A stretch of 64,000 nt of DNA, from the sequence record PP925839.1; one strand, given 5' to 3'. This stretch comes from Escherichia phage PinkRuby. The notes under the pieces are model-generated. The model was not told where the DNA came from, ran no database searches, and saw only the letters and a list, made by a program, of their open reading frames with translations. The position numbers and the translations under genes were made by a program. Positions 2,596 through 3,351 of the stretch are shown here, in pieces (positions within the stretch are counted from its first letter, which is position 1; each line of letters begins with the position of its first letter).

Positions 2596-2628
2596 ATTAT
2601 ACTCTACTCCCAAGAGTTTGTAAACTTA
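2596..2628 (-). promoter_or_regulatory. early promoter-like stop/start junction (TAA-GTTTAC-N18-TATAAT, -10 flanked by inverted repeat)
   Basis: Read on minus strand; stop of 2626..2958 abuts -35 GTTTAC; TGGGAGTA/TACTCCCA arms; AGGA before ATG of 1958..2551. Confidence 0.55.
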
Positions 2629-2958
2629 TTCTTCGTCCAATTCATCAATAAATTTATCGATACTACTATTAATAGACTCATCGATGATTAACAAAGCATC
2701 ATCATCCATAATATTAATATTTTCTAAAGCATCAATATAAGCTTGATTGACTATAGACCATGCCCTTTGAAAATATGGGGCTTCATCATCAGGACTGAAC
2801 CAACGTACACCTTCAAAGATACGTTTGGCATAATCTAACACCCATTGCACAGGCATGTTTTGAGAACGTTCGTTAAACTCTTTAAATTCCTTAGATTCAA
2901 AAAGCTCTTCAGGATAATAATTTCGATTACAAAAAGCTTTACTAAAGTTACGTTTCAT
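2626..2958 (-). CDS. hypothetical protein with acidic C-terminus
   Basis: ORF track 110 aa; GAGGAG ribosome-binding site before ATG; stop TAA abuts GTTTAC. Confidence 0.6.
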   Translation of the reverse strand: MKRNFSKAFCNRNYYPEELFESKEFKEFNERSQNMPVQWVLDYAKRIFEGVRWFSPDDEAPYFQRAWSIVNQAYIDALENINIMDDDALLIIDESINSSIDKFIDELDEE

Positions 2959-2983
2959 AATGTTCTCCTCAAGTTACAGGCTC

Positions 2984-3016
2984 ATAATATCTCAATCATG
3001 AGCCTGTGTAAACTTA
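2984..3016 (-). promoter_or_regulatory. early promoter-like stop/start junction (TAA-GTTTAC-N18-TATTAT)
   Basis: Stop of 3014..3277 abuts GTTTAC; 10-bp inverted repeat ACAGGCTCAT/ATGAGCCTGT brackets the -10; GAGGAG before ATG. Confidence 0.55.
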
Positions 3017-3277
3017 TTTCATATTATTGAAATATTCTTCTGCGATTTCGTCGTTATCATGGTAAACTTTAGAAGACAGTTTAACATAACCTTCTGCTGT
3101 GAACATGTTAATCACAACCTTTACAGTATACCACTGACCGTCTTCATTACCCATTACTGCGTAAGTTTCAAACATCGGATGATCAGGACCGATAACTTTA
3201 ATATCATTCACTGTACGACCGAAATCTTCTGAAACGCATTTCATAAAGAAGTTGAACAGTTCGCCGTAATTATCCAT
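3014..3277 (-). CDS. hypothetical protein (start moved to internal ATG)
   Basis: Track ORF 3014..3331; upstream ATG lies inside a promoter-like element (GTTTAC-N18-TACTAT); second ATG (MDNYGELFN...) at 3277 has GGAG 7 nt upstream. Confidence 0.5.
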   Translation of the reverse strand: MDNYGELFNFFMKCVSEDFGRTVNDIKVIGPDHPMFETYAVMGNEDGQWYTVKVVINMFTAEGYVKLSSKVYHDNDEIAEEYFNNMK

Positions 3278-3321
3278 TTCATTCTCCAAGTTGTTTTTCT
3301 GTATCAGTAGTTGATAGTTGT

Positions 3322-3351
3322 ATAGTACCATGGAAGAACGGGGATGTAAAC
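3322..3351 (-). promoter_or_regulatory. early promoter-like element (GTTTAC-N18-TACTAT)
   Basis: Same motif family, no fused stop codon; overlaps first codons of track ORF 3014..3331. Confidence 0.45.

Follow-up and report, generated by a model that had tools for sequence, protein, structure and literature searches.

The junctions between the small genes e.8, e.7 and e.6 in the 64,000-nucleotide (nt) stretch of Escherichia phage PinkRuby that we analyzed (PP925839.1; hereafter, the window) combine T4-type early promoters with stem-loops, and it is highly probable that they are promoter-early stem-loop (PeSL) elements, at which recombination would exchange open reading frames (ORFs). The window belongs to a Tequatrovirus: hundreds of genomes of this genus match the region at 86-98% identity, and the three genes correspond to T4 e.8, e.7 and e.6. 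A PeSL comprises, in A/T-rich sequence, the stop codon of the preceding gene, then the two promoter boxes (-35 and -10), a stem-loop that mostly lies between these boxes or overlaps the -10, a Shine-Dalgarno (SD) sequence and a start codon (Arbiol 2010, PMC2839356). Recombination between PeSLs has been proposed to shuffle the ORFs that they flank (Arbiol et al. 2010, PMC2839356), and the description was extended to PST/T4 and nt-1/KVP40 (Comeau et al. 2014, PMC4122927). Elements of this kind have thus already been published for T4-type phages, at sites that T4 shares, and those described here are not a new kind. An earlier note on this DNA had recognized them as "promoter-early stop-start" (PeSS) modules; the published element it had in mind is real, but its correct name is promoter-early stem-loop.

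The coordinates of the focal sites, all read on the minus strand, are collected in Table 1. At both junctions the stop codon of the upstream gene runs directly into GTTTAC, which is separated by 18 nt from the -10 box; an SD sequence and the ATG of the next gene stand at the 3' end of each junction, and the junction lengths are 55 nt (e.8/e.7) and 74 nt (e.7/e.6). A third copy of the motif is the predicted promoter of e.8, behind an A/T-rich tract and with TG at -15/-14. The earlier note had placed the motifs at the ends of e.8 and e.7 correctly, base for base, and the match to T4 early promoters that it had claimed holds at all three sites: their spacing equals the geometry of the T4 early consensus, with GTTTAC at -36..-31 and the -10 box at -12..-7, i.e. 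18 nt apart (Nolan et al. 2006, PMC1524935). The three sites read TTTACA-N17-TATTAT, TTTACA-N17-TATAAT and TTTACA-N17-TACTAT, and all of them (3/3) fit TTTACW-N17-TAYWAT, the consensus of PST/T4 PeSL promoters (Comeau 2014, PMC4122927). T4 carries all three motifs at matching places, and the architecture of the e.8 promoter is identical there. Predicted (early) promoters are annotated at these junctions in the GenBank records of fPS-2, JB75 and Lutter, and no promoter features are annotated in the T4 records NC_000866 and AF158101. In T4, e.8 and e.7 are classed as early for RNA and protein, and e.6 as early for RNA (PMC9697503 supplement).

Within the window, GTTTAC-N18-TAWWAT occurs twice, with 0.06 occurrences expected. 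By itself the count of TAAGTTTAC is marginal (three versus 0.9 expected; 5 of 100 shuffles reach three), and the third of these matches (40393-40401), which has no -10 box, was put down to chance. Generic sigma-70-like matches are common (48 versus 38 expected). T4 middle promoters, which depend on MotA, were also considered and rejected, the spacers acaggctcatgattgaga and aaactcttgggagtagag being devoid of TGCTT; the MotA box, (a/t)(a/t)(a/t)TGCTTtA, is centred at -30 and replaces the -35 element (Nolan et al. 2006, PMC1524935). The start of e.8, which the earlier note had shifted from 3331 to 3277, is supported at the new position because T4 and all annotated relatives give the same length of 264 nt. 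The ATG at 3331 falls within the spacer of the e.8 promoter, upstream of the predicted transcription start.

The e.8-e.6 interval was compared in 60 records, sampled systematically from the 759 that matched, and in a set of 37 loci with 31 distinct intervals. A protein search of IMG/VR for relatives of e.7 gave two loci, and scanning viral and metagenome contigs for DNA patterns yielded about 20 usable ones. Both flanks were present in 41 of the 60 sampled records, and just 10 of these 41 had the layout with e.7 only and without an indel. Altogether, the 37 loci display at least ten gene arrangements between constant e.8 and e.6 genes, and e.7 is missing, replaced or joined by further ORFs in many relatives. 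The interval holds no gene in L025 (76 nt) or, with a chimeric junction, in G9062 and five others (101-104 nt); a single gene is found in T2 (a variant of ORF Y of 58 amino acids (aa), 288-289 nt), in T4 and this window (e.7, 448-463 nt), in Shinka (the 132-aa ORF S399, 529-534 nt) and in VIPECOOM03 (the 176-aa ORF X, 629 nt). Larger intervals contain Y and e.7 in T-01 and Lutter (669-670 nt), an e.7-like gene, Y and an FRD3-family ORF in Mosigvirus phi25-307 (940 nt), and e.7 and X in CrRp10 and TH09 (1030 nt). Neither Pfam nor PHROGs provided a function for e.8, e.7, e.6, X, Y or S399. One and the same promoter-hairpin junction after e.8 stands before e.7, X or S399, depending on the phage, and for this reason the joints of these three genes fall between the 3' arm of the hairpin and the ATG. 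ORF Y is found on either side of e.7, always together with its own upstream junction, and in T-01 it is bracketed by the direct repeat TAyTATAGACTTATCA. The alignment of T4-like genomes, proposed in the earlier note as a check, thus gave a gene content that varies between the junction elements and sites that are kept in T4 and relatives; with breakpoints located in the junctions, it agrees with the note's view of the small genes as exchangeable cassettes.

Three deletion joints were traced at the level of single bases. In T2, the Y/e.7 junction gives way to that of e.7/e.6 within the -35 box, the shared AGTTTACA. The joint in L025 lies at ATGAAATAA, common to the ends of e.8 and S399, and in G9062 the ribosome site of e.7 (cTTGAGGAG) meets cTTGGGAG of the e.6 promoter spacer. 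Degraded elements include GTATAC followed by a 22-nt spacer (CrRp10) and a spacer of 13 nt (T2). As judged from the aligned sequences, the joints of the relatives indicate recombination between shared blocks, and the comparison supports the cassette reading. We infer that the shared blocks cause the exchange rather than just tolerate it.

The FRD3-family ORF of Mosigvirus phi25-307 (PF05798, E 3e-38; locus L014, 1389-1616) stands directly upstream of e.6, and an FRD3 protein is annotated at the corresponding place in JK42 and MM02. In T4, frd.3 is located in another variable region, and the FRD3 family seems to have moved from one hyperplastic region to another. ORFs X (L010, 2643-3173) and S399 (L015, 802-1200) have a homologous C-terminal half, with cross-hits between phrog_6869 and phrog_8232, and their downstream junctions are alike (GTTTACATC[T/C]CTCAAATAA), which suggests mosaicism within cassettes and not just between them.

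The two inverted repeats over the -10 boxes that the earlier note had described as perfect were both confirmed. At the e.8/e.7 junction, ACAGGCTCAT (3007-2998) and ATGAGCCTGT (2985-2976) form 10 bp around a 12-nt loop; the hairpin encloses most of the -10, and its 3' arm overlaps the final two -10 bases. At the e.7/e.6 junction, TGGGAGTA (2612-2605) and TACTCCCA (2596-2589) form 8 bp. Folding energies as RNA are -22.1 kcal/mol (z -6.9) and -14.0 kcal/mol (z -3.0), respectively, and the z-scores as DNA are -6.6 and -3.0. The third copy, at 3351-3322, is different: the motif claimed by the note is there (GTTTAC-N18-TACTAT), but folding finds no hairpin (z +0.7 as RNA, +1.3 as DNA), and the site is simply an early promoter that follows a canonical terminator. 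Stems at independent promoters are unrelated in sequence (ACAGGCTCAT, TGGGAGTA, TGATGAG, ATAGGGT and GGTACAGG) and share their position, with the 5' arm in the spacer and the 3' arm ending at about +1..+5. Among 16 alleles of the junction after e.8, 95% of cells are paired, one pair switches between AU and GC, and a second is mixed. Among nine alleles of the junction before e.6, both sides have changed in 4 of 8 pairs, and the covariation score was reached by 0 of 500 shuffles. Compensated stems at this junction are TGGGAGTA / TACTCCCA in the window, TGAGAGC / GCTCTCA in Mosigvirus phi25-307 and GAGGAC / GTCCTC in the L022 group. These compensated stems and the covariation among alleles indicate that pairing of the hairpin is under selection. 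With its 5' arm upstream of the start site, the hairpin, as the geometry shows, cannot form in the transcript of its own promoter and is confined to read-through RNA or unwound DNA. The T4 reference NC_000866 has an ambiguous base (N) within the 5' arm of the e.8/e.7 hairpin (locus L001 position 4347, ~T4 70346), which may be a legacy of sequencing across the stem-loop.

To place the focal junctions in context, both strands of the window were screened for perfect GTTTAC-N17/18-TAnnnT followed by a ribosome site and ATG. This census gave seven sites, all on the minus (early-gene) strand (63917, 55349, 7798, 7468, 3351, 3013 and 2625), and none on the plus strand. A stable hairpin lies over the -10 at six of the seven promoters, and none of the six hairpins has a U-tail; 52-nt windows of the minus strand that fold at -14 kcal/mol or below make up 3.2% overall, compared with 6/7 of the promoter windows (binomial P ~7e-9). 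The element at 63917 has an 8-bp inverted repeat, GGTACAGG/CCTGTACC, that spans the -10 (fold z -6.2), and at 55349 a stable hairpin reaches from the spacer into the leader. Elements 7798 and 7468 flank an ORF resembling an internal head protein (7481..7738; 85 aa, phrog_3499), and a perfect 33-nt direct repeat (7822-7790 and 7492-7460, minus strand) lies on both sides of it. The repeat consists of the last three codons (D-L-K) of both upstream ORFs, TAA, tttcacaaagtt and GTTTACAT, and each copy runs on into a different hairpin over the -10. Homology among the promoter copies thus ranges from 12 nt in the focal pair and the perfect 33 nt of 7798/7468 to a 69-nt repeat family (D1) at 62-84%, which comprises promoters 3351, 7468 and 7798.

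The census also bears on the fusion of stop codon and -35 box, which the earlier note had described at these junctions. It is present at both focal junctions, but it does not hold as a general feature: the distance from stop codon to GTTTAC at the six hairpin promoters is -1 nt (55349), 0 (3013 and 2625), 4 (63917) and 12 nt (7798 and 7468), and it is 2-4 nt in five divergent loci, one of them a Mosigvirus. Direct fusion is neither defining nor conserved and reflects tight packing.

Four ribosome sites contain the tetranucleotide GGAG, namely those before e.8 and e.7 and those of the genes behind promoters 7468 and 63917 (3296-3293, 2968-2965, 7419-7416 and 63861-63858, minus strand); it is absent from those of e.6 and two others. 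In early mRNAs, the T4 endoribonuclease RegB cleaves at GGAG. Cleavage by RegB at this motif would put the junction hairpin close to the 3' end of the upstream fragment.

Table 1. Junctions, promoters and genes of the e.8-e.6 region and further early-promoter elements of the window
Feature	Coordinates	Strand	Composition and remarks
e.8/e.7 junction, PeSL type	2959..3016	-	stop, -35, hairpin, -10, SD: TAA 3016-3014, GTTTAC 3013-3008, 18-nt spacer, TATTAT 2989-2984, SD GAGGAG 2970-2965, then ATG 2958; predicted start ~2977
e.7/e.6 junction, PeSL type	2552..2628	-	stop, -35, hairpin, -10, SD: TAA 2628-2626, GTTTAC 2625-2620, 18-nt spacer, TATAAT 2601-2596, SD AAGGA 2562-2558, ATG 2551; predicted start ~A2589
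e.8 early promoter	3322..3382	-	A/T tract, -35, TG, -10, no hairpin: A/T-rich tract 3382-3352, GTTTAC 3351-3346, 18 nt, TACTAT 3327-3322; predicted start ~A3315
Gene e.8	3014..3277	-	87 aa, phrog_2678, start 3277
Gene e.7	2626..2958	-	110 aa, phrog_7266; variable cassette
Gene e.6	1958..2551	-	197 aa, phrog_1203; constant flank downstream of variable interval
Two elements, GTTTAC 7798 and 7468	7439..7822	-	TACTAT -10, 7-bp inverted repeats over -10
Further element	63889..63917	-	TAA + 4 nt + GTTTAC, N17, TATTAT
Further element	55320..55351	-	TAG shares its G with GTTTAC (1-base overlap), N18, TACAAT

According to the favoured explanation, host sigma-70 RNA polymerase is expected to initiate about 7 nt past each -10 box (Table 1), and each small gene would thereby obtain its own early transcript, as the consensus match and the early expression in T4 suggest. 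The stem-loop spans the promoter spacer to about +1..+5, and its role would most likely be attenuation of the upstream transcripts, or the marking or stabilising of their 3' ends. The stop codon, GTTTACA, the -10 plus leader and the SD are the blocks common to all junctions. Recombination between such blocks, over ~8-33 nt of homology, deletes, inserts or replaces the intervening ORF, and every gene retains a promoter and a ribosome site after the exchange, as the joints in relatives show.

Several observations weigh against this explanation. The two focal junctions have only ~12 identical bases in common, far below the ~100-bp conservation invoked for the PeSLs of RB49, and several joints are out of register. 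X-type and Shinka alleles of the e.6 junction have little or no stem, and the stem of the T4 e.6 allele is weak; judging from these alleles, the hairpin is not obligatory at the junctions. Both U.G and C.A are seen as mismatched intermediates on the sense strand; wobble thus runs in either direction, and for this reason selection at the RNA level cannot be told from selection at the DNA level. Because the shared bases are so few and several joints are out of register, we keep a tentative place for an explanation by survivorship, as a possible but clearly less likely account. Here the promoters would be ordinary compact early promoters, illegitimate or microhomology recombination would occur everywhere, and only intergenic joints would be viable; the junction elements would mark sites where indels are tolerated, and the hairpins would be signals for RNA processing or stability, unrelated to recombination. 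The joints at microhomologies of 8-9 nt, some of them off the promoter register (SD versus spacer in G9062, ORF ends in L025), are in line with it, and short random homologies have been invoked for some events (Comeau 2014, PMC4122927). However, joints recur inside shared boxes, as with AGTTTACA in T2, direct repeats of promoter sequence flank the inserts, promoters make up a dispersed 69-nt repeat family, and there are chimeric promoters with mismatched hairpin arms, e.g. in Shinka. At the far end of the scale, a chance coincidence, in A/T-rich DNA, of short palindromes with hexamers that resemble promoter boxes could draw on the marginal count of TAAGTTTAC alone and on the common sigma-70-like matches, but it is already refuted by conservation and statistics, that is, by the excess of the full motif, the hairpin enrichment, the same positions of the sites in T4 and hundreds of relatives, and the covariation.

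The remaining alternatives concern the hairpins. It is rather doubtful that the stem-loops end the upstream transcript and the overlapping promoter restarts transcription, which would be the terminator/promoter reading of PeSLs taken literally. One stem-loop of RB49 cut lacZ expression about as much as rrnB T1 (Arbiol 2010, PMC2839356), and the focal hairpins are stable (-22 and -14 kcal/mol as RNA) and stand directly after a stop codon. Nevertheless, no T/U run follows either of them, the tails being AACTTGAGG and CGGATTATA; the scan for terminators calls canonical ones at 3509-3491, 4199-4176 and 4754-4731 but neither focal hairpin, and the stems are not G/C tracts as in RB49. Lacking a U-tail, the hairpins are not canonical intrinsic terminators; a Rho-independent terminator was rejected on these grounds, and the published "terminator" role finds no support in the sequence of these two copies, a further point that weighs against the favoured explanation. 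The e.8 promoter, placed behind a canonical terminator, has no hairpin, which fits a division of labour and is no proof of termination. We consider it unlikely that the hairpin is instead a device separating two transcript classes, one that sets the fate of the upstream message or uncouples downstream translation. It would then be carried only by read-through RNA, directly 5' of the leader that starts the promoter-initiated RNA; it might provide a protective 3' end after cleavage at the downstream GGAG of the ribosome site, or, on polycistronic RNA, could uncouple how the downstream gene is translated. Such a hairpin would be kept by covariation, and recombination would at times break it, giving the mismatched chimeras of Shinka and G9062. 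An action at the level of DNA, either as an operator where a dimeric regulator would turn early promoters off or as a cruciform cut by a structure-specific nuclease to seed recombination, is quite improbable. The repeats do lie exactly over the -10 and the start site, the classical position of an operator, their folding is significant in DNA as well, there are wobble intermediates of either orientation, and the mechanism of early-transcription shut-off has been stated to be unknown (Hinton 2010, PMC2988021). On the other hand, arm sequences are unrelated between promoters, which leaves no common operator, covariation preserves pairing and not sequence, and the loops, at 8-18 nt, are long for a cruciform to extrude.

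Further features were recorded around the e.8-e.6 region. About 105 nt of non-coding sequence at 3386-3490 (minus strand), between the terminator at 3509-3491 and the A/T tract of the e.8 promoter, are conserved with T4 (tctaggc...catcatttagttt.taccctttataatatattatcctatc). A 40-nt terminator hairpin (AGCCCCAGCCGAAAGGTTGGGGCT plus a T-run) is duplicated at 95% identity (4163-4202 and 4718-4757, minus strand), and its copies stand on both sides of a 157-aa ORF (4207..4680, minus strand). T4 has a single such hairpin, at the end of rnaC, and neither the 157-aa ORF nor the 187-aa ORF at 3518..4081. The terminator-flanked ORF would represent another, second kind of cassette. At 5435-6455 on the minus strand the window has eleven tRNA genes, for Arg, His, Asn, Tyr, Met, Thr, Ser, Pro, Gly, Leu and Gln, compared with eight in T4, and they are not interrupted by a homing endonuclease ORF like segB of T4.

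These results illustrate that a sequence-only reader can recover a real and published module of regulation and recombination. The e.8-e.6 region of T-even phages is a hot spot whose many arrangements have joints readable to the base, and such joints could be used to test whether promoter junctions drive gene exchange or tolerate it. The comparative map of the region and its joints add useful detail and no new phenomenon.

Related systems place the junctions in a wider context. The polymorphic internal-protein (IP) locus of T-even phages, reportedly described by Repoila et al. in 1994 (as cited in Comeau 2014), is similar in that its regulatory junctions are conserved and repeated and small genes that are not essential are exchanged between them, and it is a different locus from e.8-e.6. 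In the window, the ORF at 7481..7738 is IP-like and flanked by the 33-nt repeat with its promoter-hairpin elements; the arrangement resembles the classical polymorphic IP locus, and the repeat would serve excision better than the e.7 junctions do. Lambdoid morons, in which an ORF has its own promoter and terminator, are likewise single accessory genes that bring their own transcription signals. However, morons are thought to be inserted by illegitimate recombination, have no conserved flanks and are often antisense (PMC2839356), whereas the genes in the window have shared flanks and a conserved orientation.

The early promoters of T4 are of the UP/-35/TGn/-10 type (Hinton 2010, PMC2988021), and their consensus derives from Wilkens and Rueger and from Miller et al. 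2003, as summarised in PMC2988021 and PMC1524935. The promoters of the window share with them GTTTAC at -36..-31, TAnnnT at -12..-7, an A-rich upstream tract and the early class of the genes in T4, and promoters 3351, 7798 and 7468 also have TG before the -10. The stop-fused pair differs in having coding sequence at the place of the UP element and no TGn.

As compared with the PeSLs of RB49, the stems in the window are of mixed sequence, 7-10 bp long, without polyG/polyC tracts and without a U-tail, and neighbouring junctions share 12-33 nt instead of ~100. The stem-loops of PST are placed just upstream of the promoter in the figure legend of Comeau, whereas the stems in the window overlap the -10, which is the commonest position in RB49/phi1. 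In layout the junctions resemble PeSLs: an A/T-rich stop, a sigma-70-type early promoter with a stem-loop between its boxes or over the -10, an SD and an ATG follow each other in order, between small genes of unknown function, and they coincide with insertions, deletions and replacements among close relatives. Degraded "half" elements, such as those of CrRp10 and T2, occur as well, as Comeau describes.

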